A stretch of DNA of 63,820 bases, filler included, from Stramenopiles sp. TOSAG23-6 (Eukaryota), in NCBI GenBank assembly GCA_900128565.1. It is 13 parts of 13 records of this genome, joined end to end, with 100 filler letters (N's around TTAATTAATTAA, not from the genome) between each part and the next. Parts side by side here need not be neighbours in the genome. Positions count along the whole stretch, not along the records: positions 39,726 to 46,209 come from LT636687.1; 12 more parts are not named here. The stretch is one strand, 5' to 3'. The notes under the pieces are model-generated. The model saw only the letters and a list, made by a program, of their open reading frames with translations. It was not told where the DNA came from and searched no databases. The number at the start of each line of letters is the position of its first letter. Position 1 is the first letter of the stretch. The position numbers and the translations under genes were made by a program. This document shows, piece by piece, positions 9,285-55,900 of this stretch.

Positions 9285-9444
9285 AATTATAAGTTGAAAA
9301 CAATGCAAAACAAAATACATTATTACCTATATTGTAAGTGTAAAACAACGCAAAGACGAAATACATAAACGAAGTTTTAACCTTTAGTATTAAAAATGTA
9401 TTTGAATCGATTTGAACTTGAAATTTTTTATTCTATTGACTCCA

Positions 9445-10627: not shown

Positions 10628-11719
10628 TTATAATGCAGGTAATAATGATGAGAGGCGTTGATGTTCCGCTTTTGCTTCTTCAAAAAGTTGTTGACTTCGA
10701 GTTAAATCTTTTTGCATGATTTCTACAATATTTTTATGAGTTTTGTATCTAGAATTAACTGCATCCATTGCTGCTTTAGCTTTTGGAATAAATAATGTTG
10801 CTTTTTCAATATTTTTTTTATGTACATGTATTGTAAAAAAAAATAAATTCGAAATTTGTTAGGTACAAAATTTCGACTGAAAACGTACGGCAACGTCTTT
10901 TCTTGCAGCAGCGATTTTAATTTTATGAGATTTAAATGTTTGACCTCTACTAATCAGACCTTGAAGACGTTCAATCTCTGAATTATTTGCATCATTATTT
11001 TCTGTTGTTATTTTCAATTGTTTTAAAGCTTCTTGATGTGCTGCAACAGATTTGTTTTTTTCATTTTCAATACTTTTTAATTTAGCTTGTGATTTTGATA
11101 ATTTTACTTTCAAATTTTCATACTCAGACTTTCTCTTCTTTATCGTTTTTAATGCAATTTTTTCAGCTTCTCCAGATAATTCAAGATATGCATTCAATTC
11201 ACCAGCAGAAGCTACAGATTCATTCAATGCTTCATCATATTCTTCTTTTTGTTTATTGTATACTTCAGTCACTGCTTCAAGGTTTTCTTTACATAGAGAA
11301 GATACTTCTTTTTTCTTTGAAAGAATCTTTTGAGCTTTAACTAGTTTTTTGTTATGCTTTTCAGTTTTTTTTGGATCTTCCAATTCAAGTTTTTCCTTTT
11401 CAAGTTGAGTGACAATTTCGAGAGCATTGTTGTAGGCTGAAAGAGCAACGGCGTTTTCATTTTCACTACGCTCTTTATTTTTCTGAGCCACTGATAGCTT
11501 TTTAGTACAACTAGCATATATTACGACTGCTTTTTTATGAGCTTTAGCAGCAATTTTACCGGCTTTGACTGCAGCTTTTTTGTTTACACCCTCCTCTCGT
11601 AAATATTTAAGAAATTCCTTCTTACGCGTGTTTATTCTTTTCAACTTGATTTCTTCTAGTGTTTCCTCTTTTATCGGTTCATCGTTTGTTGGCGTCTCGG
11701 TATCACATTGTGGATTCAT
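10628..11719 (-). CDS. Mirror copy of the coiled-coil protein
   Basis: Reverse complement of 8120-9284, with a collapsed intron. Confidence 0.55.
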
Positions 11720-11909
11720 TTTCTGTATTTTTTAAGATATAGATTATAGTAAAGTACCTACTACGTACTAGTACTAGTATAGTGCCATATAGAATAGATA
11801 TTAGAATTTCTTATAACGGAACTATCGCTTCGACGCGACGAAAATCTCCAACAATTTAAATTACAGTTTTGTTCCATAAAATTTCAAAAAAAAATTGTAA
11901 ACATTTATT

Positions 11910-13191
11910 TCAAAACACATTATATTTTGCATGAACTTCTTCGTATATTCTAAGAATATTAATTTCTCTGACACTTCCATGACCTTCCATTTCACAATGA
12001 CTTCTAGTAGGACAATGAACAACTTCCTTATGTTTTTGAAATAGCCAATTCCACCAATATTTTCTTGTAGATATTTGATCATTTAAAGCATTATCTCTTT
12101 CACGTAAACGAATTCCTTCTCTTGCAGTAATGTATTGTGAAAAATATTTTTTAAAGTAAAATATTTTTGTTAGGTACAAAATTTCGTACGAAAAAAAACT
12201 TTCGATTTTTTTGTTAAAAAAAAAAATAAAACATACATATCCCACATTTCAATATATGTACTTATTATATACCCGGATAGTACAGGTACTGCAGTTATTA
12301 CAACAAATATTTGAAAACTTATGAAAAATGTTCGAGCGATAAGTTCACTGTGTAAAGCCACTTCAGCAGCATTCATGAGAGTTGGCCATGAACCAAGAAT
12401 ACTTACTGTAAACATTGAAAATAAAGAATTAAATAAATTATCAAAATTTTGTCCACGTCGATTCACACACCATTTTGCAGTCTTGGAATTTATACTATTT
12501 TGATACAAATGAGAATTACAGATATCGTCATTATCCACTGGATATCCTGTGAGCTTACCTTGTAATAATTGCATAGCAAATACACTCCATATGTAAAGTA
12601 CAGTACTATAAACACATAATGCTCGACCCATTGCTGGAATAATTCTATATATTGTCATGAAATGATGACGTGTCAATGGTAATGCTGATATGGATCTTGC
12701 AAGTCTTAGAATTCGCATACTATATAAAACTCTAAAATATCCAGCAAATTGAAGTGCGATTGACTTATTTAGTACTCTTTCATCATCACCAATTGTCATT
12801 GCATAGGAAGCAAACGATGCCAAAACACACAATGTATCTAAAATATGTGTTTTGTCATGAAAATATACATGAAATCCAAATGCATAGATTTTTAATATAA
12901 CTTCAAAAGTGAAAAATACACAAAGAAGAATTCCAATAATGTACCATGCATTAGATGAATTTTCATCTGTATATATTTCATACATAACATTAGGATGATT
13001 ATGATTTACATCTGGTCCAATCATATATATTTGTATACACGAAATAAATGCAAACACATTGACTATAATTTCAAAGCATACTGTACTTAAGATGTGAGCC
13101 AATATATGTTTCAAATATTGATTTGACATACAACATGGACTACAATGTAAATGATGTGAATGAATCACTTTAAAATTTAGATATGATAATA
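11910..13191 (-). CDS. Mirror copy of the ion channel fragment
   Basis: Reverse complement of 6648-7929. Confidence 0.7.
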
Positions 13192-13721
13192 NNNNNNNNN
13201 NNNNNNNNNNNNNNNNNNNNNNNNNNNNNNNNNNNTTAATTAATTAANNNNNNNNNNNNNNNNNNNNNNNNNNNNNNNNNNNNNNNNNNNNCCGAATTGT
13301 CCGCCGAATTTGCTCCGAAAAAAAAAAAAAAAAAAAAAAAAAATGACGCTTAACGTGAATTGTCGATACGATTATTTGAACGAGAAATTTCAATTTTTTT
13401 TAGCGAAACGAAACCTGCAAATTGCCGAGCTTGTAAAAAAATCGTTAGGTACAAACTTTAGTACGAAAAAATGTAGGTAAAAACAATTTAGGTACTATTA
13501 AGAATATATATTATATATATGGCGCAAGGTACATGTGTCATAATAATCTTGTTGGTTAAATTTTGATTTTTATTTGATTTAAACCAAATGGCAAAACAAT
13601 GTACTGTATGAATATATTACACTCGGTATATACTAAAGGAATAGATATTCATATTCACACACAATTGCTAGAAAGTGTAGTTCTGTGCTCTCTTCCCTAT
13701 CAGTGGCATCTTTTGGGTTAA

Positions 13722-28003: not shown

Positions 28004-30859
28004 TTAAAACCAAACAGTTCCAGGTGGAATACAAAGTCGTTTCACAGACTCAACAGCCGACGATTTCTCCTCAGCCTTATTCACTGCAAATAGAATGTCT
28101 CTATGTATATCATTATTATATTGATCGATTACTGTAACACCTAGTGTCCTCTCGCAAACACCGCCATCTCCAACGAGACCACCGAAAAGGACCTCCTTCA
28201 TATTGGTTTGTATCATCACACCTTCATTCATATTTGTATGAACTACTTCACCGTCATGTATATGAGTATGAACATAGTGTAGCCCCCCGTGAACGTGGTA
28301 GTTGCAATATGAATTAACTGTGATTGTTTTCTTTTCTATACTTACAGTTGTGTTTGGACAAATAACTATACTGTGGAAAAATATTTTAGAAAAAAAAATG
28401 TTAGGTACGGAATTAAACCAAAAAATAAAAAGATTGAAATTTATCGTGAAAACGTACCTGTATACTCTGGCTTAATAGCAACACCTTTATGTTTCGTGTT
28501 TGAGTCAATACTAGTAAAAATGGAGTAAATTTTTTTCTGTGTTTCATCATCGGCTTCTGTTCGAGATATCGCCTGAAGAGTCCAATTAACAAAATTATTT
28601 GACATTATCTTTGGGTCACACATGCCAGGCAACAAATGTGAATCGTCCTTCAGTAACTTACTATCCTTTGTAATGGTATCAATTAATTTTTTTTCCAATT
28701 GTACTAAATCATCTGTCGGTTCTCCTCCTTTTACATATAAATCATGCATTTCTATTTTTTGACCATTAACACTTATTTCATGCTCTTCAGATATTGTTTT
28801 CAATAAATCATGTTGCTCAATTTTATCACGTTTACCTAGAACAAGTCTACTGAAAATAGTACTTTCTCCTATATCGTTTTTATTTTTCTTCTTATGTTTA
28901 TGATGTTCATGGTGTTTATGATGTTCATGATGTTTATGATGTTTATGGTGTTCATGATGCTTGTGATGATGTTTATGATGTCTATGTTTATGATGATGAT
29001 GGTGTATATTTTGTCTTTTGCGTATCTCTTTTGTAGTATGGTGATGCATGATATTACTGCCCTCTAAATTATTATGCTGATGTGCAAAATCTGAAGCTGT
29101 ACTTCCATCCTTGCTTTGAATTTCAACCAATGCTCCATGATCAAGTAATAAACGAAGTATGTCATTTGAGTGTTGCGCCGCTGAAATCATAAGTGGTGTA
29201 ATCCCATTCTCGTCTGAGCTGTTTACAAGAGCTCCGCGCTTAAACAAATTCAGTATCAATCTTTTTGATTGATTGCCAACGGCTTCCCGAAGTTCTTTAT
29301 TTAATTTGCAAGTAGTACAAAAATAATAACCTTCAGGTATTTCATTCAAGGGTGGATTCATGCAGTATAAATGACATCCTTTAGAACATCCATCGCATAA
29401 TATTATATATGTTGGGTTTACACAAGTGTTGCACACGGTACAGGGAAATTGAGGTGATGTCATTGCACCGGGCTGTTGTTGTATTACACCGGGAGGTTGC
29501 TGCATTACACCGGGCTGTGGCTGCATTACACCAGGAGGTTGCTGCATTACACCAGGTGGTTGCCGTGTAGGATCATTTAGATGAGAAACTTGACTTTGCA
29601 TAGCAGTATTCTCTAGACGACGTTCAATATTAGCTAGACGCTGCTCATCATCATCTAAACGGACATTATCATCTTTTGAAGTAGAATGTGAACTCGAACT
29701 AGACCTAGATCCAGAGCCAGAATCTGAACTAGTACCAGAATCTGAACTAGAACCAGAATCTGAACTAGAACCAGAATCTGAACGAGACCCTGAACTAGAA
29801 TCATCGCTATCTGAATAAGAGTGATGATTTGTAGTGGTCACACTTCCAACATCTGTAGTAAGAGGAGTGGTAAAACCATCAATATTATACTCCGAATCTG
29901 CAGAGTGCCGGCGTTGGTTGCGTTTATTCTTTTTGATAAAACCGCGCAACATTTCTACAATATGTTCCGGTCCCTTTTCCTTTGCAATATGTAGTGCATT
30001 CACACCTCGATGATTTTTCTTCAGAGCATTAGCACCACAATGCAATAACATGTTTGCTATGGTGTATTCCCGAGTATCCAATGCAAGCATTAGAGGAGTA
30101 TTCCCATCTTTGGCGGAAATATCTGGTGATGCACCTTGCGTTAAAAGTAACTTTGTAATATTTTTATTTCCAAGCTGCACTGCATACATCAATGCTGAAT
30201 GTCCATCTTTTGATTTAATGTCTGGATCCGCGTGAAGTTTTAAAAGCTCATTTACTATATTTAACCTACGTTCAAATGTGGCAAGCATGTATTTTGGAAA
30301 AATATTTCAAAAAAAAAACGTTAGTTACAAAATTTCGTACNNNNNNNNNNNNNNNNNNNNNNNNNNNNNNNNNNNNNNNNNNNNNNNNNNNNNNNNNNNN
30401 NNNNNNNNNNNNNNNNNNNNNNNNNNNNNNNNNNNNNNNNNNNNNNNNNNATATTCGCCGAATTTCGTGTATAGAGTGCTTTTCAGAGATTGCTGACATC
30501 AATTTCTCTCCGATTTCACATTCTGGACAACTCCAGTCTTCACTCGGCAAATTATACAGTGGTGGAGTTAAACAATGCATATGATAACATTTACCACAAT
30601 TTTTATATCTGCAGTAGATTAATCGATGTCTATTGCTATCATCATCGTCTTTACATACAGGACATACAAAAATATCTGTTTTCGATTCCCATGCATCTCT
30701 GATCTCTTGATTATGTTTTCGTGCTCTTTTGGCTTTAATACCAAAAAGATCTTTTTTAATTTGAAGATCAGTTTCACCCGCTGATTTTAATTGTTTTACA
30801 ATACGTTTATCTTCTTCTTCGTGTCCGAACACACTAAGTGCGCTATCTATACTATTCAT
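28004..30859 (-). CDS. PHD finger and ankyrin repeat protein (2 PHDs, His-rich tract), multi-exon with an N gap
   Basis: CPVC..C..C..YHMHCLTPPL..LP..DWSCPEC and a second PHD; GxTPLM ankyrin repeats. Family introns at 30287-30340 and 28366-28457. Confidence 0.8.
28366..28457 (-). other. Family intron that ends in a canonical AG (92 nt)
   Basis: AG|GTACGTTTT...CCGTACCTAAC...CCACAGTAT-AG|TT joins in frame to VICPNT...MNEGVMIQ. Confidence 0.85.
30287..30340 (-). other. Non-canonical intron, 3' part (..CCAAAATAC-AT)
   Basis: Core with GTAACTAAC next to an N gap, followed by an ankyrin exon. Confidence 0.7.
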
Positions 30860-39625: not shown

Positions 39626-39725
39626 NNNNNNNNNNNNNNNNNNNNNNNNNNNNNNNNNNNNNNNNNNNNTTAATTAATTAANNNNNNNNNNNNNNNNNNN
39701 NNNNNNNNNNNNNNNNNNNNNNNNN

Positions 39726-39779: not shown

Positions 39780-40339
39780 GCTTAATGTTTCTCGATCTTG
39801 TCTTGAAGATGATTTGCAAAATTTGAAACGATACAAAATTGATTGGCCATTAATTATGAAACTTACTGAACTTCAGATTATTAATTTATCAGAAGAGAAA
39901 CGGGCCTATTTTTCAAACTTTTTTACTTCTACATTGGTACAACAACTTCTAGACGATGTATGTTTTATTTTTTTTCAATTTAAAATTTATTTTTCGTACG
40001 AAATTTTGTACCTAATGATTTTTTTTGAAATATTTTTCCAAAATACTTGAAAGGCGTTTACGAATGCAAGCAGTTAAATCCGAATACGCTGAACTTGAAA
40101 ATCTTATGGTTCAAGCAATGATTGAAATAGAGAAAGGTACACCACAAGCATTTAAAAAATACTTGAAGAAAATGGTAGAAAAATCCAAACTTAAAAAAAT
40201 AGCGACTCTATATATTCATGATTATGATGATAACGAAATTTGCTCCGATATTGGGATGTGTAGTCCTTCTGAGTTGGAAATTCCAAAGCAACCGTATATT
40301 TGGCCTTGGATGGCACGATTCTTACCTGGTGGGAGGTAA
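39780..40339 (+). CDS. Hypothetical protein C-terminus with a possible saposin-B-like end (EICSDIGMC), 2 exons visible (copy at 46364-46923)
   Basis: Intron 39958-40048 joins QQLLDD to ERRLRMQ. Confidence 0.55.
39958..40048 (+). other. Non-canonical intron GT..TT (91 nt; copy at 46542-46632)
   Basis: AT|GTATGTTTT...core...CCAAAATAC-TT|GAA. The first downstream AG leads to an early stop. Confidence 0.8.
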
Positions 40340-41252: not shown

Positions 41253-42983
41253 TCACCAAACTTCCTCTTTTTCGGCCACGGGCTCAGTTTTTTTTGGAGA
41301 GTTATGAACACCGTTACTATTTCCTTTCTCTTCATTGTTATCACCACCCATTTTATTAATAAGCTTATCCAAGAGGCCCCACTTTTGATTCCTTCGAAGT
41401 TTTTCAATTTCATTACATAAATCCTCTTTATCTTTCCAGAGTTTTTTANCACNTTCNAGNTTTTTTTTNTTNANTTGNTTTTTTCTGGGCTAGCATTTGC
41501 TTTGTTCGAAAAGTTTTACGCTCGTTTTCTATCCCAAGCATTCTAGCTTTGAATTCAAGTTTCCTCTGGATTTTTTCTACGTTATCCAATTTGTCCTTCA
41601 GCATGTTAATGAAAAAATATGTCACCAAAGTTTTTTTGTTAGGTACAAAATGTAGTATAAAAGAAAAAAAAAATTATTCATGAAAATATACCTCATTTCA
41701 GCGAGAATGTTTTTGCGTTTTCGTTCTTCATCGCGCTTTTCTCTTGCAATTTTCTGCCTTGTCTCTTTTTGCATGCGTTTTTCAATGATCTCCTTAATAC
41801 GATTCTTCTTAATTTGTTCCGCAGCTTCAAACTTTTTCTTCCGAAATTCAGCTGCAGCCTTTAAGTATGCCTCTCTTTTACGCCGTTCAATTTCTTCAAT
41901 TTTCTCCTTTTCTTTTCGATATATTGCAGCTTCTTCTTGTTTTTTCGTGTAATCGTCTATAATTTTTTGCTGCTTGAAAGCATCGCGTTCTAACGCTTTT
42001 GCTATTCTGAGTTTACTTTTATCCCGCACTTTTTGGCGTTCAATTCTCATTAATCTATTTGCTTCATCCATTCGTTCTAATCTGATTTGATTTGCGAGTT
42101 CCATATCCTTCATTTTTTGAAGTAGACGTTGTCGCTCATTTTTTTCAGCTTCTTCTGCATCTTCTTTTTTCTTTATTGCAGCTTTTACTGAGGCCGCATC
42201 GCGTTTTCTTTGCTCCCTTTGAAATGCTAATAATTCAGCTGCTTTTTTTTCCTTTGCAATTTTTCTCTCTCTATAATCTTTCTTTGCTTGCTCACGTGCA
42301 AGAGCACGTTCCTGTTTCAATCTTTGTTTTTTTTCAACATCTCTCTGACGCCGTAATTCTGCATTCGCAATTTGTCTGTCTTTACGTTCTTTGTTTCGTT
42401 TTTCTGTTTCTTTCTGTTCCCTTGCTCGTTTTGCTGCAGCTTCTGCAGTAACTTTGTTCATTGTCTTCTCAAATTCAATTACTCCTTCAATCTCTCGACG
42501 TTGTCTATCTCTGATAGCTTTCATTCTGATCATTTCAGCTTTGATCATTGAACTATTATCACCACCTCCTGACTTCATGGAATTTGCAAGAACCTGTGCA
42601 GCAACAGCGGAACCAAATCCTTTCTTCTCCCGTGGAGGTGCTTTATTTGTAACAACTTCACCACGAGAGTTGCATTCGTTTCTTATTACATCTTCACGAG
42701 TTTGCTGAAGTTCCCAAAGCTTTCGCTGACGCTTATCTTCAAAATGTTTGTACTTCACAACAGCTAATTGCTTCCGCAAAGCAATATTTTTATTTTTTTT
42801 ATCACTAAATGTGTGTATTGCTCGGCGTTGAAGTTCTTCTTTTGAAAACCCACAACGCTCGGCAGCAAATGAAACTCTAGGTGTACCTAGTCGTATAAGA
42901 AAATCCTCTTGTTCCTCAGTAACTCTAGGACGTTTTGATTTCCCCTTCATACCAGCCACGCCATCTCTGGAAGATCTTACCAT
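41253..42983 (-). CDS. Charged coiled-coil protein (flagellar-associated-like), 2 exons, low-quality bases near 41450 (copy at 47837-49567)
   Basis: Long R/K/E-rich helix. Intron 41603-41691 joins AEMR to LKDKLDNVEK. Confidence 0.65.
41603..41691 (-). other. Non-canonical intron GT..AT (89 nt; copy at 48187-48275)
   Basis: AG|GTATATTTT...TTTTGTACCTAAC...TTCATTAAC-AT|G is in frame. Confidence 0.75.
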
Positions 42984-43154
42984 ACTCTTCTATACTGCTT
43001 TAATCACCGATTTGTTTCAGTTTTGCTGAAAGATACAAGATGTTGATTGGATAATAGTACTACCTTCAAAACGAACGTTTCATAAAAAAAAAAACACGAA
43101 ATATACGATTTTTATTTTTTCGAAGATGTATTGCCAATATTTAGATTAGTTCTG

Positions 43155-44584
43155 TCAAATAGGAGAGTCAAATATAGGTTTCATGTAATCTTTACCATAG
43201 CATACAATGAGAAGTTCATTAACCAGCGAATCTGTTGGAACGAGGACATCAATTCCCCAAAGTTTTCCATTGACTTTGTATTGTAAAAAAATATTAAAAA
43301 AAAAGAATCCTTAGGTACAAAATTTCGTACGAAAAATATTGAAATTTTAAAATGGACAACATACAAATTATCCGTAAATGCTCTTTCATAGTTCTTCCAC
43401 GGCCCGACAGTTACTGTGTCTGGAACAATATCGACATGAAGGTCACCTTTATAATCTTGATCACATTGTGAATAAACCCTATCATTAATAGTGTATGGCT
43501 CTGTACATGAAAATTTGATCAATTGTGCTTGAACACCATTATAGTTCAATTTCTCCATATTTTGAACTCTTTTATCATGTATTGTGAAAAATTATTTTTT
43601 TTTTTTTTTCGGTAAAAAAAAAAAAAAAAAAATCGTTAGGTACACAATTTCGTATGAAAAAATAAATTCGAAATTGAAAAGAAAACCTACATATTGCAAA
43701 TTATTTTCATTATCAGAACATTTAGATGCATCGCATGTTAATGTTTGACTATATTTTTTCCAAGAATTTAAAACAGTTTCATCTCGTAAATTCACGCGAA
43801 GGTCCACATCATCATCATGAATAATAGGTTCTCCTCTCTTGAATTCTAATAGAGTTCCATTAGAAAGTGTTTATTGTGAAAAATATTTTTTTTTTTAAAA
43901 ATATCGTTAGGTACGAAATTTCATACCAAAAAAAAAAAGATTGAAAATCATCATGAAAACGTACATTACTGGAATATGATTTTTTTTCATTGTAGATGTT
44001 ATTGCTTTAAGTATTGCAACTCTATATTGATATACATAGCTATAATTTTCAGGTGTTATTTTTATCTGAGAGTGTTGATATTTATCAGCGATGGGATTTT
44101 CATTGTTCTTTTTATCTTTGATGTCTTCGATATCTTCATTATTTTTTGATATTGTTATTTCTGTTGTAGTAGCATCGCTAGTTGCTTCAATATTATCACC
44201 AGTCTTTATATTTTCATTATTTGTATTATGCCCTGCTTTATCCTCTTTGATATTACCATCATTCGTTTCAACAATATCCGCAACGTTACTCGCAATAATC
44301 TTATCAACGGTCTCATTATTATCCGGTGTATAAAGCTCAGGAAATGTTTTATCGTCACTCTTTAAGCTCTTTAACTTTGCTTTGAACCTTGAATTATCTT
44401 TTTTATTCTGAGATTTTACGGGTTTCATTAAATACGTACTGATACGATTAGCCCATACCTCTGATGTATTGTCAAGTTTGAGATAGTCAGAACCAAACCG
44501 TTTCCTTGACGACAAAGTAGCCAAGTTTTTTGCTGTAGAAAAATTGACAGATAAAACAAGTAAAAAGAATTCAAAGAATTGCAT
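43155..44584 (-). CDS. LicD-family phosphocholine/nucleotidyl transferase with a signal peptide, 4 exons (copy at 49739-51168)
   Basis: Spliced product contains HIPVILSNGTLLEFKRGEPIIHDDDVD, LHVDI, and GKLWGIDVLVPTD...CYGKDYMKP. Confidence 0.8.
43276..43364 (-). other. Non-canonical intron GT..AA (89 nt)
   Basis: TT|GTATGTTG...core...TACAATAC-AA|AGTC. Using the AG 2 nt downstream gives a stop within a few codons. Confidence 0.8.
43577..43690 (-). other. Non-canonical intron GT..AT (114 nt)
   Basis: AT|GTAGGTTTT...core...CACAATAC-AT|GAT is in frame. Confidence 0.8.
43869..43964 (-). other. Non-canonical intron GT..AC (96 nt)
   Basis: AT|GTACGTTTT...CGTACCTAAC...CACAATAA-AC|ACTT restores IPVILSNGTLL. 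Confidence 0.8.
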
Positions 44585-44831
44585 TGTTCTTCCAAGCAAA
44601 TTCTTGTGATTGTGCGAAAATTAGACGTGTGTACAATTCACCCAAAGTACCACACAGTTGTAGAATATTCTATGTGGTGGTTTATGTTGTTTGACGTTAT
44701 TTTTGAATTTTTTTGAAAAATTTTTGAAATCGAAATCGAAATATTTTTCCGAATAGAATACATCCGAAATCGCCTAAAAATGTTTCACAACAACTATATT
44801 TACTATTTTATATACATGAATACATTGAACA

Positions 44832-46143
44832 TTATAAATCAACATGAATGCCCGAACATAGGCCTTTACCTTGTAAGTAGTTATGGTGAATCGATCTCAT
44901 TTGAGTTTCAGAAAGTCCAGAAAGTGAAGCTGATCCCTCGACACATCCTTGGTTCTCAATATCTATGAAAAAGGGCAAATCTATAGGTGTTATTTTTAAT
45001 TCTTTTTGTAGCCAATAAGCAACACTAACATCTTCCAAGGTTCCAATTGCTTTAAGAGTGCCTCTTTGTGCTTTTCTACTCAAAAACTCTACTAAATCAT
45101 GTGAAAGAATGTAGTGAGAACCATGGGCAAAAGGAGGGAAAGCTGCTCCATCAAAGTCAGAAAAGGGAACATAATTTCTATGAGATGGTTCGCGCATTGG
45201 CCAGACTTTTCGATGAAATCGTGTTGCCCAAACTTCCCCAAAAAATGCTTTTGATACGGGTGCTCCATTTTCAGGTCGTAGTTGCTTTACAATATTATCA
45301 AGTGTGACGTAGACATCAGCATCAATCATCAAAACATACTTAAAATTGAAGTGGGAAGTTATATACGCAAAGAATGACACAGTTTTTTGAACTAATGTAA
45401 AATAACTATCAATCACATCAATCGAATCTTCTAATAGTAAGTCTCCATATTTAGCTTGTTCCTCTTCAAGTTCTTTCTTTGCTTTATCCTTGTCAGCAAA
45501 TTTTGTCCAATCAGGTCGGCCGATGATGAATAAAATTTTTGTAGTACTGTTCGTATGATCACTACCCGATATCCAAGTTTCTCTTGCTGTCATCCGTCTT
45601 GACACGGATTTTGCAGCGACTTTTATACCTACAATGACATTTACATTTTTTTTCTTTATTTTTCTGAATTCACCAGATGTTGGTGTGTATTGTTTCAAAT
45701 AAACTGGTTGTTGTTTGGGTTGGTTAGTGGCAAATTTATCTTTGTCATGATCATTTGTGTAATAGACATCTTTTGGATGAAAGAGCATGGATTGCCCAAC
45801 AGCAGGTTGGAGTGAAAAATTGACATGATTTGTTTTACCAATAGCTTCATACAAAATATTACATGGTGCACTACCTAGCATACCTACACAATTATTCTTC
45901 TCTTTTGTAGCTTTTTGATTTGGTCGTATAACTACTCCGGCAGCGGATGTGTCCATTAGAGTTGCAGTCATGGAGTATTTTCCTGTGACCAAGTTTTTTA
46001 ATTGAACAACTGATGCAAAAAGACCTTCACACCAACGCCATTCTTTGCCTTTAGGTTCCAACAAATCCGGACCCTTCATTGTGAAACACATCGCAGTAGA
46101 TTCTTCATTACGTTCGTTGAAACTTTTAACATCGTCCACCAGA
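44832..46143 (-). CDS. GT31 beta-1,3-galactosyltransferase-like, 5'-partial (copy at 51416-52727)
   Basis: RRMTARETW, LEEEQAKYGDLL, DSYFTLVQKT, YVLMIDADVYV, FPPFAHGSHYILSHDLV, LEDVSVAYWL. Confidence 0.9.
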
Positions 46144-46209
46144 ATGTATTTTGAAAAAATATTTCAAAAAAAAAACTTAAATTTGTTAGGTACAAAATTT
46201 CGTACGAAA
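46144..46209 (-). other. Non-canonical intron, 3' part (..TCAAAATAC-AT)
   Basis: Core plus 3' motif at the contig end. Confidence 0.7.
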
Positions 46210-49200
46210 NNNNNNNNNNNNNNNNNNNNNNNNNNNNNNNNNNNNNNNNNNNNTTAATTAATTAANNNNNNNNNNNNNNNNNNNNNNNNNNNNNNNNNNN
46301 NNNNNNNNNGTACGAAATTTTGTACCTAACGATTTTTTTTTGAAATATTTTTTCACAATACTTGCTTAATGTTTCTCGATCTTGTCTTGAAGATGATTTG
46401 CAAAATTTGAAACGATACAAAATTGATTGGCCATTAATTATGAAACTTACTGAACTTCAGATTATTAATTTATCAGAAGAGAAACGGGCCTATTTTTCAA
46501 ACTTTTTTACTTCTACATTGGTACAACAACTTCTAGACGATGTATGTTTTATTTTTTTTCAATTTAAAATTTATTTTTCGTACGAAATTTTGTACCTAAT
46601 GATTTTTTTTGAAATATTTTTCCAAAATACTTGAAAGGCGTTTACGAATGCAAGCAGTTAAATCCGAATACGCTGAACTTGAAAATCTTATGGTTCAAGC
46701 AATGATTGAAATAGAGAAAGGTACACCACAAGCATTTAAAAAATACTTGAAGAAAATGGTAGAAAAATCCAAACTTAAAAAAATAGCGACTCTATATATT
46801 CATGATTATGATGATAACGAAATTTGCTCCGATATTGGGATGTGTAGTCCTTCTGAGTTGGAAATTCCAAAGCAACCGTATATTTGGCCTTGGATGGCAC
46901 GATTCTTACCTGGTGGGAGGTAATAGATGTAATACGTAGTAATGGGTAATAGTATAATACTATTGAATTGAAAGTGAGATGATATAAAAAATAAAAAAAA
47001 AGTAAAAAAAAAGTAAAATCATGAATTTCAAAATAAAAATAATCGCGAAATTTCAAAAAAACGCCGTATCTTTCTAAAAAAGAAATGATAGTACACAACA
47101 AAATTTAATTATAAGAAAATATTTATAGATTACAATGAAACGTAAAGTGGTTATCGAAAGGTCAAAGAATAACTCGGGAGAGCAGAGTGATTCTGGAGAT
47201 GAGTCGGTATCGAAACGGAGAAAACGGCTCATGATAAGACACCGGAGTAAACACTGGAAACTAGTTGTAGATGACAAAGGGGAAGATTCAATAGTGGAAG
47301 AGAATATTTTACAAGGTGACCCAACAGAACCCCCGGAAAATTCAAACGATTCACTTGTAGATTCATCAAAAGATAAAAACGATATATTACCAGCGATACA
47401 TCCTCCTGTTGCTTCACAAAGTAATTCCGGGCCCAAGTCAACACCAAGGCTTTTAATTAGACATAGAAGTAAAGCTTTTTTAAACACAGGCGAAACTAGT
47501 GAATCTGAAGTTGCTTTAAATGATAATGATAGTCATCACGATGAAAGTCAGGGCGATATTACAGAATTTCCCAGTATTAGTGAAACATCCGAAGCCGTTG
47601 ACTACGCTTCTTCACCAGAAGAATCTTCTACTGCTAAAGGTCAAACAAAACTCTCCGATGAAGATGAGCAAGTTGCTGCTGCGAAAGCGCTTCTTCAGTT
47701 ATCACCACGAGCTAAATCATAGTGTATCTCTCTCTCTCTTTCTTCNCCCCCCCCCCCATGAAATATAAACCCTGTTCATATATGTAAGCTCCATATAAAA
47801 CATTTGAAATAAATTTTATAGAAAGTAAAAAATAATTCACCAAACTTCCTCTTTTTCGGCCACGGGCTCAGTTTTTTTTGGAGAGTTATGAACACCGTTA
47901 CTATTTCCTTTCTCTTCATTGTTATCACCACCCATTTTATTAATAAGCTTATCCAAGAGGCCCCACTTTTGATTCCTTCGAAGTTTTTCAATTTCATTAC
48001 ATAAATCCTCTTTATCTTTCCAGAGTTTTTTANCACNTTCNAGNTTTTTTTTNTTNANTTGNTTTTTTCTGGGCTAGCATTTGCTTTGTTCGAAAAGTTT
48101 TACGCTCGTTTTCTATCCCAAGCATTCTAGCTTTGAATTCAAGTTTCCTCTGGATTTTTTCTACGTTATCCAATTTGTCCTTCAGCATGTTAATGAAAAA
48201 ATATGTCACCAAAGTTTTTTTGTTAGGTACAAAATGTAGTATAAAAGAAAAAAAAAATTATTCATGAAAATATACCTCATTTCAGCGAGAATGTTTTTGC
48301 GTTTTCGTTCTTCATCGCGCTTTTCTCTTGCAATTTTCTGCCTTGTCTCTTTTTGCATGCGTTTTTCAATGATCTCCTTAATACGATTCTTCTTAATTTG
48401 TTCCGCAGCTTCAAACTTTTTCTTCCGAAATTCAGCTGCAGCCTTTAAGTATGCCTCTCTTTTACGCCGTTCAATTTCTTCAATTTTCTCCTTTTCTTTT
48501 CGATATATTGCAGCTTCTTCTTGTTTTTTCGTGTAATCGTCTATAATTTTTTGCTGCTTGAAAGCATCGCGTTCTAACGCTTTTGCTATTCTGAGTTTAC
48601 TTTTATCCCGCACTTTTTGGCGTTCAATTCTCATTAATCTATTTGCTTCATCCATTCGTTCTAATCTGATTTGATTTGCGAGTTCCATATCCTTCATTTT
48701 TTGAAGTAGACGTTGTCGCTCATTTTTTTCAGCTTCTTCTGCATCTTCTTTTTTCTTTATTGCAGCTTTTACTGAGGCCGCATCGCGTTTTCTTTGCTCC
48801 CTTTGAAATGCTAATAATTCAGCTGCTTTTTTTTCCTTTGCAATTTTTCTCTCTCTATAATCTTTCTTTGCTTGCTCACGTGCAAGAGCACGTTCCTGTT
48901 TCAATCTTTGTTTTTTTTCAACATCTCTCTGACGCCGTAATTCTGCATTCGCAATTTGTCTGTCTTTACGTTCTTTGTTTCGTTTTTCTGTTTCTTTCTG
49001 TTCCCTTGCTCGTTTTGCTGCAGCTTCTGCAGTAACTTTGTTCATTGTCTTCTCAAATTCAATTACTCCTTCAATCTCTCGACGTTGTCTATCTCTGATA
49101 GCTTTCATTCTGATCATTTCAGCTTTGATCATTGAACTATTATCACCACCTCCTGACTTCATGGAATTTGCAAGAACCTGTGCAGCAACAGCGGAACCAA

Positions 49201-52200
49201 ATCCTTTCTTCTCCCGTGGAGGTGCTTTATTTGTAACAACTTCACCACGAGAGTTGCATTCGTTTCTTATTACATCTTCACGAGTTTGCTGAAGTTCCCA
49301 AAGCTTTCGCTGACGCTTATCTTCAAAATGTTTGTACTTCACAACAGCTAATTGCTTCCGCAAAGCAATATTTTTATTTTTTTTATCACTAAATGTGTGT
49401 ATTGCTCGGCGTTGAAGTTCTTCTTTTGAAAACCCACAACGCTCGGCAGCAAATGAAACTCTAGGTGTACCTAGTCGTATAAGAAAATCCTCTTGTTCCT
49501 CAGTAACTCTAGGACGTTTTGATTTCCCCTTCATACCAGCCACGCCATCTCTGGAAGATCTTACCATACTCTTCTATACTGCTTTAATCACCGATTTGTT
49601 TCAGTTTTGCTGAAAGATACAAGATGTTGATTGGATAATAGTACTACCTTCAAAACGAACGTTTCATAAAAAAAAAAACACGAAATATACGATTTTTATT
49701 TTTTCGAAGATGTATTGCCAATATTTAGATTAGTTCTGTCAAATAGGAGAGTCAAATATAGGTTTCATGTAATCTTTACCATAGCATACAATGAGAAGTT
49801 CATTAACCAGCGAATCTGTTGGAACGAGGACATCAATTCCCCAAAGTTTTCCATTGACTTTGTATTGTAAAAAAATATTAAAAAAAAAGAATCCTTAGGT
49901 ACAAAATTTCGTACGAAAAATATTGAAATTTTAAAATGGACAACATACAAATTATCCGTAAATGCTCTTTCATAGTTCTTCCACGGCCCGACAGTTACTG
50001 TGTCTGGAACAATATCGACATGAAGGTCACCTTTATAATCTTGATCACATTGTGAATAAACCCTATCATTAATAGTGTATGGCTCTGTACATGAAAATTT
50101 GATCAATTGTGCTTGAACACCATTATAGTTCAATTTCTCCATATTTTGAACTCTTTTATCATGTATTGTGAAAAATTATTTTTTTTTTTTTTTCGGTAAA
50201 AAAAAAAAAAAAAAAATCGTTAGGTACACAATTTCGTATGAAAAAATAAATTCGAAATTGAAAAGAAAACCTACATATTGCAAATTATTTTCATTATCAG
50301 AACATTTAGATGCATCGCATGTTAATGTTTGACTATATTTTTTCCAAGAATTTAAAACAGTTTCATCTCGTAAATTCACGCGAAGGTCCACATCATCATC
50401 ATGAATAATAGGTTCTCCTCTCTTGAATTCTAATAGAGTTCCATTAGAAAGTGTTTATTGTGAAAAATATTTTTTTTTTTAAAAATATCGTTAGGTACGA
50501 AATTTCATACCAAAAAAAAAAAGATTGAAAATCATCATGAAAACGTACATTACTGGAATATGATTTTTTTTCATTGTAGATGTTATTGCTTTAAGTATTG
50601 CAACTCTATATTGATATACATAGCTATAATTTTCAGGTGTTATTTTTATCTGAGAGTGTTGATATTTATCAGCGATGGGATTTTCATTGTTCTTTTTATC
50701 TTTGATGTCTTCGATATCTTCATTATTTTTTGATATTGTTATTTCTGTTGTAGTAGCATCGCTAGTTGCTTCAATATTATCACCAGTCTTTATATTTTCA
50801 TTATTTGTATTATGCCCTGCTTTATCCTCTTTGATATTACCATCATTCGTTTCAACAATATCCGCAACGTTACTCGCAATAATCTTATCAACGGTCTCAT
50901 TATTATCCGGTGTATAAAGCTCAGGAAATGTTTTATCGTCACTCTTTAAGCTCTTTAACTTTGCTTTGAACCTTGAATTATCTTTTTTATTCTGAGATTT
51001 TACGGGTTTCATTAAATACGTACTGATACGATTAGCCCATACCTCTGATGTATTGTCAAGTTTGAGATAGTCAGAACCAAACCGTTTCCTTGACGACAAA
51101 GTAGCCAAGTTTTTTGCTGTAGAAAAATTGACAGATAAAACAAGTAAAAAGAATTCAAAGAATTGCATTGTTCTTCCAAGCAAATTCTTGTGATTGTGCG
51201 AAAATTAGACGTGTGTACAATTCACCCAAAGTACCACACAGTTGTAGAATATTCTATGTGGTGGTTTATGTTGTTTGACGTTATTTTTGAATTTTTTTGA
51301 AAAATTTTTGAAATCGAAATCGAAATATTTTTCCGAATAGAATACATCCGAAATCGCCTAAAAATGTTTCACAACAACTATATTTACTATTTTATATACA
51401 TGAATACATTGAACATTATAAATCAACATGAATGCCCGAACATAGGCCTTTACCTTGTAAGTAGTTATGGTGAATCGATCTCATTTGAGTTTCAGAAAGT
51501 CCAGAAAGTGAAGCTGATCCCTCGACACATCCTTGGTTCTCAATATCTATGAAAAAGGGCAAATCTATAGGTGTTATTTTTAATTCTTTTTGTAGCCAAT
51601 AAGCAACACTAACATCTTCCAAGGTTCCAATTGCTTTAAGAGTGCCTCTTTGTGCTTTTCTACTCAAAAACTCTACTAAATCATGTGAAAGAATGTAGTG
51701 AGAACCATGGGCAAAAGGAGGGAAAGCTGCTCCATCAAAGTCAGAAAAGGGAACATAATTTCTATGAGATGGTTCGCGCATTGGCCAGACTTTTCGATGA
51801 AATCGTGTTGCCCAAACTTCCCCAAAAAATGCTTTTGATACGGGTGCTCCATTTTCAGGTCGTAGTTGCTTTACAATATTATCAAGTGTGACGTAGACAT
51901 CAGCATCAATCATCAAAACATACTTAAAATTGAAGTGGGAAGTTATATACGCAAAGAATGACACAGTTTTTTGAACTAATGTAAAATAACTATCAATCAC
52001 ATCAATCGAATCTTCTAATAGTAAGTCTCCATATTTAGCTTGTTCCTCTTCAAGTTCTTTCTTTGCTTTATCCTTGTCAGCAAATTTTGTCCAATCAGGT
52101 CGGCCGATGATGAATAAAATTTTTGTAGTACTGTTCGTATGATCACTACCCGATATCCAAGTTTCTCTTGCTGTCATCCGTCTTGACACGGATTTTGCAG

Positions 52201-52893
52201 CGACTTTTATACCTACAATGACATTTACATTTTTTTTCTTTATTTTTCTGAATTCACCAGATGTTGGTGTGTATTGTTTCAAATAAACTGGTTGTTGTTT
52301 GGGTTGGTTAGTGGCAAATTTATCTTTGTCATGATCATTTGTGTAATAGACATCTTTTGGATGAAAGAGCATGGATTGCCCAACAGCAGGTTGGAGTGAA
52401 AAATTGACATGATTTGTTTTACCAATAGCTTCATACAAAATATTACATGGTGCACTACCTAGCATACCTACACAATTATTCTTCTCTTTTGTAGCTTTTT
52501 GATTTGGTCGTATAACTACTCCGGCAGCGGATGTGTCCATTAGAGTTGCAGTCATGGAGTATTTTCCTGTGACCAAGTTTTTTAATTGAACAACTGATGC
52601 AAAAAGACCTTCACACCAACGCCATTCTTTGCCTTTAGGTTCCAACAAATCCGGACCCTTCATTGTGAAACACATCGCAGTAGATTCTTCATTACGTTCG
52701 TTGAAACTTTTAACATCGTCCACCAGAATGTATTTTGAAAAAATATTTCAAAAAAAAAACTTAAATTTGTTAGGTACAAAATTTCGTACGAAANNNNNNN
52801 NNNNNNNNNNNNNNNNNNNNNNNNNNNNNNNNNNNNNTTAATTAATTAANNNNNNNNNNNNNNNNNNNNNNNNNNNNNNNNNNNNNNNNNNNN

Positions 52894-52949: not shown

Positions 52950-55900
52950 TTGGTCCATTTCATCAAAAAAGGAAGCAAATGTTTTATACATCGATGAGTT
53001 TTTTATTGCTCTTTGTCTTATTTCTTGTGCTCAAAATCAACAAAAAGTTGATATTTCAAGTTTATCTTTATCATTAGAGCTACCACCTGCAAAATTTGAA
53101 GGTATTGATTTACCTTTAGGAATTGATCATTCTTTAAAACAACAAACAAAAATAACACCAACAACAAAAACAACAACAACAACAACACCAACAATATTAC
53201 CACCAGCACCACCACCAGCACCAACAACAACAACAACACCAACACCAACAACAACGCCACCAACAAAAACAACAACAACAACAACAACAACACCAACAAA
53301 ACCAGAAACACTACGCCGTGATACATCAGATATTGATGATGTAATGATGCGAATGATTGATTGTTCACCAACTACATCAAAGAAAACATCAGAAGAGGAG
53401 AGTTTAAGTCTTAGTGCATTGAAAATTCGCAAACGATCAAATACAAAATCTATTGATGAGATTGAATCAACGTATTATAGATTATTATTTAATGCTGTTG
53501 ATAAAACGGGTGCTAATGATGAAAAATTAAAGGGTAAAGAAGTCGTTACATTTATGAAAAAATCTGGTATTGATAAAAATGTGTTGAAAGAAATTTGGAT
53601 TTTAGCTGATCAAAATAGAAATTATTATCTTGAATTTAATGAATTTATTATAGCCATGCGATTAATCGCATTAGTGCAATCTAAAATGTCTCTTGATATA
53701 ACAAAAGTATCAAATATAGATACATTTATTGCATTAAATATCCCTCTTGCTCAATTTGAAGGTCATCCTACACCACCAGTCTTACCTGGAAGTCTAAGTC
53801 GTCTGGGTGGAATATATGTTTTATTTTATTTCAATTTCGAATTTATTTTTTTTTTTGGTAAAAAATTTTTGTACCTAACAAATTTTTTTTTTATAGAAAA
53901 TTTTGAAATATTTTTTCAAAATAAATGATTGTCCAAAAAAATAATGATAAAATGTCAGCATTTGATGATATTGATGATATTGATGATAAAATGTCAGGAT
54001 TTAATAGTATTGATGATAAAAATGATAATGATACTAATGATACTAATGAAAACAATGATACTAATGAAAACAATGATACTAATGATAGTAATAAGGATAA
54101 TGATGGTCCACAAGAACAAGTAGAAGATTTATTTTCTACAAATAATATAGAAATCATTTCGAATGATTTAAACCCTAACCCTCATGAAGATGATTCAATA
54201 CACACTAACCCTAATGATTGTATTGAAAAAAATCCTACAATTCCAATTTCTTTATTTAATTCTGGTGATATTGTATTCCGTCTTAATCAACGTAATGTAT
54301 ACCAACCAGCAATTATTTTAAAAGTTCACAAAGATGATCCAACAATTTCAAGTGTTTATTACACAGTACGTGTTGGTACTTCTGATGGTAAAGGTAGAGA
54401 AATTCAAACTGTTTCCGAGAGATTATTTTTTGCAACTTCAATGACTGACGTTCTTATTCAAAAGTATTTTAAAGAATTATCCCAAGTAAATATCTCAAAT
54501 GTTGACATCACAAATGATTCTTCAGCGACAAATACTACAAATACTACAAATACTACAAATATAAATACAAATAATCATCATAATAATACAAATAATAATA
54601 ATACTATAAATACTACTACAAATACTACTACAAATAACGCAATGGTGGGTGGTAAAAATGCTGTAATTTTTTTTTCTCGTTCCAAAATTTTGAAATCAAT
54701 TTTAAGACAAATTTGGAGTATTGTCGATGATCAAAATATTGGACAATTGTCATTTGCACAGTTTACATTAGTCATGCATTTTATTTCTTTGGCACAAAGT
54801 AGTATAAGTGAAACTATACAATGGCCAAATTTAAATCTTTCTAAAGGTTTAGAAATATTATCAAAATATCCAATGCAACCTTGTTTGATGATTTTAACAG
54901 ATGATGAAAATAAACAAAATCAAAATGTACAAAATCAGTATGTAAATGATATTAATACGACTGCATTATTCAATTCTAAAGAATTACAAGATGATAATAA
55001 TAATAATAATAATAATAATATATTACTTAATTCCAAAGAATTACAAGATGATAATAATAATAATAATAATAATATATTACTTAATTCTAAAGAATTACAA
55101 GATGATAATAATAATAATAATATATTACTTAATTCTAAAGAATTACAAGATGATAAAAATTCAGTATTGACAAATACAAAATCTATTGATGAGATTGAAT
55201 CAACGTATTATAGATTATTATTTAATGCTGTTGATAAAACGGGTGCTAATGATGAAAAATTAAAGGGTAAAGAAGTCGTTACATTTATGAAAAAATCTGG
55301 TATTGATAAAAATGTGTTGAAAGAAATTTGGATTTTAGCTGATCAAAATAGAAATTATTATCTTGAATTTAATGAATTTATTATAGCCATGCGATTAATC
55401 GCATTAGTGCAATCTAAAATGTCTCTTGATATAACAAAAGTATCAAATATAGATACATTTATTGCATTAAATATCCCTCTTGCTCAATTTGAAGGTCATC
55501 CTACACCACCAGTCTTACCTAAAATAGATGTTGAAACGACAGTTACAAATGATGATGAATGGGGTGCATTTACAGATGGTACTTTGGATAATGATTTGAT
55601 GATGAATGATACTACTACTACTACTACTAATAATAATAATAATAAAGAAGAAAAAGAAGAAGAAGAAGAAGAATGGGGTGCATTTAAAGATGGTACTTTG
55701 GATAATGATTTGATGATGAATGATAATAATAAAGAAGAAAAAGAAAAAGAAGAAGAAGAAGAATGGGGTGCATTTACAGATGGTACTTTGGATAATGATT
55801 TGATGATGAATGATACTACTACTACTACTACTAATAATAATAATAATAAAGAAGAAAAAGAAGAAGAAGAAGAAGAATGGGGTGCATTTAAAGATGGTAC

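Follow-up and report, generated by a model that had tools for sequence, protein, structure and literature searches.

Few rules of eukaryotic gene expression are as conserved as the 3′ AG of introns. Splicing of the minor (U12) type tolerates varied 3′ ends, which are set by the distance from the branch site. Genome-scale exceptions to the 3′ AG in the literature cited here, as far as the accessible parts of these papers extend, comprise Fritillaria, Amoebophrya and the euglenozoans. According to the available portions of Soo et al. (Nucleic Acids Res 2026, PMC13326754), introns of the tunicates Fritillaria borealis and F. pellucida are cut at non-AG 3′ ends, of which AT is the commonest (44% in F. 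pellucida and 34% in F. borealis) and AC is also frequent. The second-last base of these introns is an adenine, YAY forms the last three bases and often also precedes the 5′ site (section 21 of that paper), a T-rich tract is kept, and the splice sites are attributed to the termini of non-autonomous transposons, or "introners". F. borealis has mostly AG/AC and AG/AT introns, and its U2AF is duplicated.

Amoebophrya (Syndiniales) has repeated intron families with non-GT-AG splice sites, in which direct repeats overlap the exon/intron boundaries and for which standard gene predictors fail; the accessible text of Farhat et al. (BMC Biol 2021, PMC7789003) reports no clear terminal dinucleotide signature, and describes inverted repeats of 8–20 nt with hairpins joining the intron ends. 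The introners of Aureococcus and Micromonas, in the parts of PMC7789003 and PMC11282704 that could be drawn on, are short near-identical copies that occur in many genes and have terminal repeats and target-site duplications; the element carries one splice site, and splicing is canonical GT-AG.

Here we describe a LicD-like gene from Stramenopiles sp. TOSAG23-6, located in a window of 63,820 nt (the whole stretch of DNA that was analysed, N-linkers included). In all probability it is an intact, transcribed gene whose three introns, members of a short, introner-like family, are spliced at non-AG ends. Measured against the available descriptions cited above, the family resembles the Fritillariid introns in that AT is its commonest 3′ end, YAY forms the last three bases of 13 out of 19 3′ ends, 17 of the 19 have A as their second-last base, and a T-rich tract is present. 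It differs from them in its host, which is labelled a MAST-3 stramenopile and not a tunicate, in its canonical and strong 5′ site (GT in 12 of 13 complete introns, GTAYGT), compared with the mostly AG/AC and AG/AT introns of F. borealis, and in its invariant yeast-like CTAAC branch motif, at which intron 3 of the LicD-like gene has CTAAG. With Amoebophrya it shares a marine protist host, a repeated intron family, non-GT-AG sites and the unsuitability of standard predictors; however, its termini are well defined (GT...AYAT) and have no conserved pairing. Like the Aureococcus and Micromonas introners, it consists of short near-identical copies across many genes, but it ends mostly in AT.

Structure of the LicD-like gene

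The gene is encoded on the minus strand (44584–43155) in four exons, with the ATG and the stop codon (43157–43155) read from the sequence (Table 1). Joining the four exons gives an open coding sequence of 1131 nt and 376 residues, which contains the motifs named in the initial annotation; the three family introns that it had placed, ending in AC (43869), AT (43577) and AA (43276), were all found at these coordinates. Exon 1 codes for a hydrophobic stretch at the N terminus, a linker rich in N, D and E and the beginning of the LicD-like domain, exon 2 for the GTLL...HDDDVD core of the nucleotidyltransferase-like domain, and exon 4 for the C-terminal V.VP...YG.DYM.P motif. This conserved C-terminal motif is reachable past intron 3 only with a frame shift.

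Table 1 Features of the LicD-like gene, with positions counted along the whole window
Feature	Position	Strand	Description	Basis
Exon 1	43965..44584	−	ATG at 44584	Sequence, ORF listing, RNA contigs, tail aligned to homologues
Intron 1	43869..43964	−	96 nt, GTACGT start, AC end	RNA junction
Exon 2	43691..43868	−		RNA contig over 43690–43868; aligned to 27 homologues
Intron 2	43577..43690	−	114 nt, GTAGGT start, AT end	Homologue profile, family register
Exon 3	43365..43576	−		Gapless at either junction in homologue alignment
Intron 3	43276..43364	−	89 nt, GTATGT start, AA end	Homologue profile, family register
Exon 4 + stop	43155..43275	−		Sequence, homologue alignment, RNA contig over 43105–43255
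Branch-site-like motif, intron 1	43906..43914	−	GTACCTAAC	Motif scan, family alignment
Branch-site-like motif, intron 2	43635–43643	−	GTACCTAAC	Motif scan, family alignment
Branch-site-like motif, intron 3	43310–43318	−	GTACCTAAG	Motif scan, family alignment
Second identical gene copy	49739..51168	−	Within the contig present twice	Not independent evidence

Contigs of about 6.5 kb, strung together with N-linkers, make up the window, and the contig at 39726–46209 is present twice, the second time at 46310–52793 (spacing 6584). The repeat is 100% identical across a 300-nt reference copy, and the pattern of single Ns, the ORF lengths and the motif contexts are likewise repeated. Because the same contig is duplicated in the window, the second copy of the gene was not counted as independent.

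Kinship of the predicted product

With the read-through of exons 1–3 as query, a full HMMER search returned 27 relatives at E ≤ 0.001 (best 1.4e-9). The G-T-L-L ... DDD.D core and the C-terminal YG.DY..P are present and align with these homologues, which is the likeness to the LicD/fukutin/FKRP family (PF04991), together with the fusion of one homologue to a cytidylyltransferase. In contrast to that family, the window's own pieces stay below the Pfam threshold without any listed E-value: neither the four single exons nor the read-through of exons 1–3 matched Pfam LicD at E ≤ 10. Eight of the 27 homologues match it at E ≤ 0.01, and two of these (25.0 and 24.3 bits) exceed its gathering cut-off of 22.6 bits. 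The LicD identity proposed in the initial annotation is thus carried by the homologues, through Pfam and through Atlas clusters, and not by a Pfam match of the exons or their read-through. For the best homologue, P0002, the nearest Atlas clusters are LicD, with 89–93% of their members assigned to the family, and its model compares with FKRP and LicD clusters at a TM of 0.57–0.60; for this homologue only, the modelling supports a nucleotidyltransferase fold. The nearest relatives form a subfamily of small proteins of about 200–240 residues, whose Atlas clusters are mostly Nucleocytoviricota.

Judged by its sequence, the product is probably a divergent LicD-like enzyme of the nucleotidyltransferase-fold type. 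By analogy with the family, the predicted activity of such an enzyme is the transfer of a phospho-alcohol or phospho-sugar, with a CDP-activated compound as donor. The only indirect hint of the use of such a donor comes from homologue P0013, which carries a fused cytidylyltransferase-like domain (71.4 bits).

A phmmer search of the PDB matched no solved structure. Word-indexed searching of longer proteins with exon 2 gave 13 candidates, none of them significant, and the databases searched yielded no protein in which exon 2 is present. In metagenome contigs, a gapped pattern for the spliced junction 3 gave 0 matches, and none of 84 pattern matches for exon 3 relatives was confirmed.

Transcript evidence

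Two metatranscriptome contigs join position 43965 to 43868 with zero letters between them, which confirms that intron 1 is removed from RNA at the predicted bases, with its AC end. Both are assembled contigs rather than raw reads, derived from two seawater samples (X2 and X3) of one study, and they differ from the window by 0–2 letters per aligned piece. The boundary of intron 1 is unshiftable, as its flanking bases differ, and no AG occurs within the intron. The nearest AG lies 23 nt downstream; using this first AG would remove GTLL, as the initial annotation had stated, though it is out of frame with the GT donor and not in frame as had been thought.

The gene is transcribed: in addition to the contigs listed in Table 1, exon 1 lies under RNA contigs over 43965–44111 and 44027–44591. 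The X2 junction contig covers 43690–43868 and departs from the genome at the donor predicted for intron 2 (43690), with 21 letters remaining. RNA reads across the three junctions had been proposed as the check on the gene model; the assembled RNA contigs, two of them, bear it out base for base at intron 1 (GT..AC), and reach intron 2 with the donor departure alone, contig cover being absent at 43375–43532 and across introns 2 and 3. The summed depth of RNA contigs rises from single digits over the exons to hundreds to thousands over the family sequence, an excess that fits a high copy number.

Placement of introns 2 and 3

Since Pfam LicD has too little power here, alternative splice models were scored with a profile built from the 27 homologues alone. 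The spliced model aligns to all 27, and no gap falls at its three junctions. It scored 172.9 bits with the non-AG ends, compared with 31.0, 159.3 and 143.7 bits for the best GT/GC..AG alternatives at introns 1, 2 and 3, respectively, and every GT/GC..AG model of the three introns fell 13.6 to 142 bits below it. These scores, and the RNA junction of intron 1, uphold the proposal that the gene needs non-AG acceptors.

In the top-scoring boundary pairs, donor and acceptor are nearly always shifted equally, and at introns 2 and 3 several models with both ends moved by the same amount lie within 0–3 bits, some of them above the non-AG model. As equal shifts score alike, the protein evidence fixes the excised length, in line with what the motif spacing had been taken to mean, and not the position; the positions of introns 2 and 3 therefore rest on the family register described below, from which we infer their exact junctions. 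For intron 2, four placements (AT..AC, TG..CA, GT..AT and TA..TG, shifts −2 to +1) give the same mRNA, and none of them has an AG end.

It is also conceivable that introns 2 and/or 3 are cut at shifted AG acceptors paired with a non-GT donor, so that the adjacent AG is not bypassed. Intron 3 as AT..AG (43362–43274, a +2/+2 shift) scores 172.4 bits vs 172.9, the best AG-acceptor model of intron 2, whatever its donor, falls just 8.4 bits short (164.5), and the RNA junction is seen for intron 1 alone. On the other hand, such boundaries would give up the conserved GTATGT donor common to 12 of the 13 family introns, would leave a 5′ end that is still non-canonical, and would make intron 3 depart from the register of intron 1, for which RNA shows the cut 3 nt after AATA. 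Retaining the GT donor does not help, because its combination with the AG located 2 nt past intron 3 breaks the frame and ends the product at 344 residues, about 8 codons beyond the junction, the early stop foreseen in the initial annotation. We therefore regard shifted AG boundaries as improbable, and prefer the non-AG ends for all three introns. The expectation that AG-based models would fit worse is accordingly borne out for GT/GC donors and fails for the AT..AG form of intron 3, which ties; the neighbouring AG is probably bypassed, as it breaks the frame with a GT donor, though an AT..AG cut scores about equally.

An intron family with a common register

Both sequence signatures of the introns recur throughout the window: the branch-site 12-mer has 41 matches vs 2.39 expected and the 3′-end 12-mer 19 vs 3.06 expected, duplicated contigs included. 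The family comprises 13 complete and 6 partial unique copies, which are sense-oriented and sit in ion-channel, CLASP, EH-domain, ankyrin/PHD and LicD-like genes, among others. Many near-identical sense copies in unrelated genes are what is expected of introners. The register was set by eye from the motif, before the frame test, with the 5′ cut at the first base of GTAYGT and the 3′ cut 3 nt after AATA. Under this common register the reading frame is kept in all 13 unique complete introns, 12 of which lack an AG end; the probability of 13/13 by chance is about 2e-5, and that of 10/10 for the ten introns outside the LicD-like gene about 3e-4. An AG occurs 2–7 nt downstream in 3 of the 12 non-AG introns, and its use would break the frame.

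The 3′ dinucleotides of the complete introns are AT (nine), AC, AA, TT and AG (one each), the intron ending in TT being without the second-last A. Across the 19 3′ ends, the last base is T in 16 and A, C or G in one each, base −3 is always A, and T dominates at −29 to −22 and −14 to −11. At the 5′ end the consensus is GTAYGTTTT, and all three introns of the LicD-like gene start with GTA. In the family alignment the GTACCTAA columns show no variation (13/13). The two bases upstream of the 13 donors are mostly A (11) and then T (10), AT also stands at the intron end, and the introns have short inverted ends (GTAT.../...ATAC). The introns are 63 to 130 nt long, and 33 to 59 nt separate the CTAAC branch adenosine from the 3′ end. 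The acceptor had been described as positional, which holds in the sense that it is fixed 3 nt after the conserved AATA and does not extend to a constant distance from the branch site.

RNAalifold applied to the 13 introns gave 0 pairs and no covariation. The idea that the intron ends are joined by pairing in the style of Euglena or Amoebophrya was dropped on this result.

The elements could alternatively be recent transposon insertions that are not spliced at all, the joined RNA coming from a co-occurring strain without the elements or from excision at the DNA level. The RNA contigs stem from environmental samples, in which an element-free strain could give the same joined sequence, they show a few mismatches to the window, and the AT on both flanks resembles a target-site duplication. 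However, all 13 copies lie in long ORFs in a frame-preserving register, all are sense-oriented and equipped with donor, branch-site and T-tract signals, and without splicing a large proportion of the window's genes would be left broken. Moreover, one RNA contig without intron 1 also departs from the genome at the donor of intron 2. Insertions without splicing are thus quite unlikely, and removal of the elements from RNA as introns remains the preferred reading.

Possible splicing mechanism

The cutting of introns at AC, AT and AA ends suggests that the splicing machinery ignores the last intron base. Each copy of the family brings along a strong 5′ splice site (GTAYGTTTT), the branch-site motif TACCTAAC and a T-rich tract, and closes with the conserved 3′ terminus TTTTYCAMAATAYAT. 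Removal would most likely be performed by the major (U2-type) spliceosome, with the 3′ cut falling exactly 3 nt past the AATA of the terminus. The second-last base is nearly always A and the last base mostly T, with C, A or G possible without moving the cut, so that the G of the AG acceptor would be dispensable and nearby AGs would be passed over. The introns have the GT 5′ site with extended consensus, the CTRAY branch motif and the pyrimidine tract of U2-type introns, and lack the 3′ YAG, ending in AC, AT and AA in this gene and without AG in 12 of the 13 family introns. The near-identical copies, the flanking AT reminiscent of a target-site duplication and the assembly breaks within copies suggest that the family may be a transposon-derived introner.

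Removal by the minor (U12-type) spliceosome was considered, because most copies can be written as AT..AC (AT before the GT, ATACAT at the end) and non-AG 3′ ends are tolerated in that system. In intron 2 and in members with AT upstream, an AT..AC placement leaves the mRNA unchanged, and the branch motif TACCTAAC agrees with the U12 consensus TCCTTAAC at 6 of 8 positions. Nevertheless, intron 1, as seen in RNA, starts with GT and is unshiftable, the 5′ end is GTAYGT and not the RTATCCTT of U12 introns, and the 33–59 nt between branch site and 3′ end are far beyond the short spacing typical of U12 introns. An Rfam search of the whole window gave no match, snRNAs included, and is uninformative on this point. 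A role of the minor spliceosome in removing the family is very unlikely in the light of these features, and a U2-type removal is favoured.

Finally, that the gene is not as drawn, being an artefact of a fragmented, amplified draft assembly with chimeric or duplicated contigs, is barely credible: one contig is indeed doubled in the window, another has an internal inverted duplication, single Ns are many and six contig ends lie inside family elements, but environmental RNA contigs match exons 1, 2 and 4 with 0–5 differing letters per contig of 151–348 nt (about 97–100%), and the order and spacing of the exons give a protein collinear with 27 homologues.

Implications for the host lineage

A VPS11 ORF of the window is identical, in all aligned blocks, to a protein whose source label reads MAST-3 assembly. 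A larvacean (Fritillaria) source, at first favoured for its matching 3′ ends, was rejected on this match; an Atlas search with VPS11 yielded no usable taxon. Our literature search found no report of non-AG introns in MAST-3 or stramenopiles, although PDF supplements could hold such a remark. It may well be that genome-wide splicing without the 3′ AG arose independently in a MAST-3 stramenopile, where an otherwise conventional U2-type system would cut a dominant and recently expanded introner family at GT...A-N, mostly AT. If this is true, the last intron base would be free while the second-last A and the 5′ and branch signals of yeast strength would be kept, and the origin of non-AG splicing would be separate from those in tunicates and Syndiniales. 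Public gene models of the lineage that are based on GT-AG would then be systematically wrong. A predictor assuming GT-AG cannot model the LicD-like gene, and in the public CDS of a neighbouring ORF five short GT..AG segments were cut from an open frame.

The finding would add another lineage to the genome-scale exceptions to the 3′ AG, and in a cleaner configuration, in which the 5′ and branch sites are canonical and strong and only the last base is freed. It would thereby isolate one question, namely what reads the 3′ end of an intron, and this question is testable in a single gene, in which introns 1 and 3 have unambiguous boundaries.

Structure of the LicD-like gene and RNA evidence for splicing

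The LicD-like gene lies on the minus strand, where its frame opens with an ATG at 44584, is interrupted three times and closes with a stop at 43157-43155. Joining its four exons yields an open CDS of 1131 nt (376 residues), and both the observation behind the initial annotation and its three intron coordinates (see table) agree exactly with the sequence. The window does not represent a single locus; it is built of contigs of ~6.5 kb each in falling length order, separated by linkers of the form N44-TTAATTAATTAA-N44 (e.g. 6548-6647 and 39626-39725). The contig at 39726-46209 is present twice, being identical at 46310-52793 (spacing 6584), so the second gene copy at 49739-51168 is not additional evidence. 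An ORF for a GT31 galactosyltransferase (44832-46163, -; Pfam Galactosyl_T, 98.8 bits) immediately precedes the LicD-like gene on its strand, and the two could form a small glycan-modification gene pair.

Parts of the window were found in seven seawater metatranscriptomes from three studies, and the best four, all of them assembled contigs, were aligned to 41479-46209. Two RNA contigs from two samples of a single study, X2 record 12 (348 nt) and X3 record 18 (151 nt), join 43965 straight to 43868 at consecutive record positions, which places intron 1, base for base, where it had been proposed. The flanking bases are not the same at the two cuts (T vs C, G vs A), so this boundary cannot slide; formally, the joined contigs could also derive from a co-occurring strain without the insertions. 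X2 record 12 runs on through exon 2 and its match ends at 43690 with 21 letters remaining, as would be expected if intron 2 were spliced from its predicted donor; the one-base overlap at 43690 arises because exon 3 also begins with G. Among the contigs listed for these four runs over 41479-46209, none crosses intron 2 fully and none crosses intron 3. Summed contig depth reached hundreds to above ten thousand over family-intron sequence vs single digits over exons, as expected if the intron family is present in very many copies in the sampled seawater; its great abundance there could reflect unspliced RNA, excised introns or DNA carry-over.

Introns of the LicD-like gene, with profile scores of alternative boundaries, and segments of high RNA depth
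Feature	Coordinates	Strand	Length and ends	Proposed model (bits)	Best GT/GC..AG (bits)	Best any donor + AG acceptor (bits)
Intron 1	43964-43869	-	96 nt, GTACGT...AC	172.9	31.0	146.7
Intron 2	43690-43577	-	114 nt, GTAGGT...AT	172.9	159.3	164.5
Intron 3	43364-43276	-	89 nt, GTATGT...AA	172.9	143.7	172.4
High RNA depth over family-intron sequence (summed environmental contigs)	43217-43374
High RNA depth over family-intron sequence (summed environmental contigs)	43533-43690
High RNA depth over family-intron sequence (summed environmental contigs)	43849-44006
High RNA depth over family-intron sequence (summed environmental contigs)	46061-46209

Homology test of the gene model

Because the lengths of introns 1 and 2 are divisible by three, exons 1-3 can be read through (translated with TAA shown as X). 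Neither the four single exons nor this read-through matched Pfam LicD, so the comparison of alternative translations with that HMM, as suggested initially, has no power here. A HMMER search of 1.84 billion representatives with the read-through recovered 27 relatives at E <=0.001 (best 1.4e-9), most of them 200-240 residues long with a hydrophobic segment at the N-terminus. The spliced model aligned to them gap-free at all three junctions, with the junction residues on conserved columns. All pairings of a donor and an acceptor lying up to 30 nt from the proposed boundaries (3721 combinations per intron) were scored against a profile built solely from the 27 homologues. The top of each grid was occupied nearly exclusively by pairs in which donor and acceptor shifted equally; homology thus fixes the excised length, as had been argued, and leaves the exact position free.

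For intron 2, shifts of -2 to +1 yield the same mRNA (AT..AC, TG..CA, GT..AT, TA..TG), and none of these ends in AG. For intron 3, certain equal shifts outscore the proposed model by up to 3.3 bits, and an AT..AG intron shifted by +2 scores 172.4 bits vs 172.9 for GT..AA, two readings that are equivalent on the protein evidence. The bypass of an adjacent AG at intron 3 was reasoned rather than seen. The central proposal, that this gene needs non-AG acceptors, is right in substance.

A family of introns with a common register

A branch-site-like 12-mer occurs 41 times in the window (2.39 expected from shuffles) and a 3'-end 12-mer 19 times (3.06 expected), the duplicated contig being counted in both cases. 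Aligned with one another, the 13 unique complete copies share a conserved 5' end GTAYGTTTT, a conserved core TTTTCGTACGAAATTTTGTACCTAAC with columns GTACCTAA invariant, and a conserved 3' end GAAATATTTTTYCAMAATAYAT. Six more copies are truncated by contig ends, which indicates that the repeat breaks the assembly. An apparent internal inverted duplication was seen in contig 6648-13191, where the intron and flanks at 7603-7709 (+) recur on the minus strand near 12177. Its ORFs are arranged mirror-wise, with equal lengths at 6596-7669 (+) and 12170-13243 (-) and unequal lengths at 8108-9094 (+) and 10859-11731 (-), where an N run interrupts the plus copy; this could be an amplification chimera.

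Intron 1, with both ends visible in RNA, supplied the register: one cut before GTA and one 3 nt after AATA. Applied to the 13 unique complete introns, this register kept long open frames on both sides of all 13 joins. Eight introns permit one offset in three and five permit two in three, so that by our own arithmetic the chance of 13/13 is ~2e-5, and that of 10/10 outside the LicD-like gene ~3e-4. In this register the 5' ends are GT (12) and AT (1), and the 3' ends AT (9), AC, AA, TT and AG (one each). For half of the 12 non-AG introns, the next 30 nt downstream contain no in-frame AG, and three have an AG 2-7 nt downstream that would break the frame if used. Over 19 3' ends, the base at -3 is always A, the second-last base is A in 17 and T in two, and the last is T in 16 and A, C or G once each. 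Given these counts, introns 1 and 3 end in point variants of the consensus AT (AC and AA, respectively), with the cut unmoved.

Several members depart from the consensus. The intron at 53814-53926 (+) has ATATGT in place of GTATGT at its start and AAT at its end; read in register, it is of the AT..AT type and separates two long ORFs of an EH-domain gene, with a frame-consistent join. The copies at 39958-40048 (+) and 39738 (+) end in CTT, without the conserved second-last A, and one of them is frame-consistent in register. The member at 28366-28457 (-) has a fully canonical context (CAG|GTACGT...TATAG|), showing that AG, too, can terminate this element with the register unchanged.

Placement of the 3' cut and possible mechanism

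The CTAAC adenosine lies 33-59 nt from the 3' end, and the introns are 63-130 nt long, so neither the branch point nor the 5' end sets the 3' site by distance. The site is placed relative to the conserved terminal motif, and the initial description of the acceptor as positional holds in that sense and not as a measured distance. Removal by the major spliceosome is suggested by three features: a strong GTAYGT donor, an invariant CTAAC branch motif and a T-rich tract. Spliceosome structures show the last G of the intron contacting the first G, and the second-last A contacting the branch adenosine. A system in which only the contact between the last and first G has been relaxed would account for a retained second-last A next to a free last base. 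Alternatively, the reader of the 3' end may have changed; PMC13326754 proposes this for F. borealis, with its duplicated U2AF.

The donor is preceded by AT in most copies (A in 11, T in 10, n=13) and the intron ends in AT, with extreme ends GTAT.../...ATAC. Judged from sequence, the arrangement resembles a short inverted terminus plus a target duplication of two bases, features known from transposon-derived introns. Terminal pairing was without covariation, as position +4 is C in 5/13 copies and its would-be partner stays A, and RNAalifold predicted no conserved pair across the 13 introns.

Genome-scale non-AG splicing has been linked to introner transposons in Fritillaria, whose introns, according to PMC13326754, most commonly end in 3'AT, with a second-last A and a terminal YAY. 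The present family shares these 3' features; unlike Fritillaria, it has a canonical 5' site and its host belongs to a different eukaryotic supergroup (MAST-3 by source label). Amoebophrya also shows genome-scale non-AG splicing, for which PMC7789003 gives no defined termini signature and describes hairpin-forming inverted repeats that join the ends; canonical introners in the stramenopile Aureococcus are cited there. In the literature and text supplements searched, introns of this kind were not described for MAST-3 or any other stramenopile.

The LicD-like protein and its host

Eight of the 27 homologues match Pfam LicD at E <=0.01, two of them passing the cut-off; two others match a nucleotidyltransferase family, and one is fused to a cytidylyltransferase domain. 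The nearest Atlas clusters of the best homologue are LicD (89-93% of members carry the family), largely from Nucleocytoviricota, and clusters of FKRP and of bacterial LicD align with its Atlas model at a TM of 0.57-0.60. The gene is best called LicD-like, because its homologues match LicD and its own sequence fails formal Pfam membership; the LicD label first given to it thus stands as kinship through homologues, not as family membership. These nearest relatives (P0002-P0028) form a small-protein subfamily, with Atlas clusters mostly from giant viruses (Nucleocytoviricota). It is conceivable that the host gene is viral in origin and that introners invaded it later.

The gene content of the window is eukaryotic, including VPS11, enolase, an ion channel, actin-like, CLASP, ankyrin/PHD, GT31 galactosyltransferase and EH-domain proteins. 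The VPS11 ORF (20-2173, +) is identical in every aligned block to the public protein model P0029 (source label MAST-3); the sole difference is that the model omits five in-frame segments, 42-78 nt in length and each with GT..AG ends. This match overturned an early assignment to a Fritillariid tunicate, which the likeness of the 3' ends to those reported for that group had suggested. P0029 is therefore an automated model of the same sequence, and the five segments, cut from one continuous ORF, look like canonical introns made by the predictor. Given these excised segments, public protein models for this genome may be unreliable.
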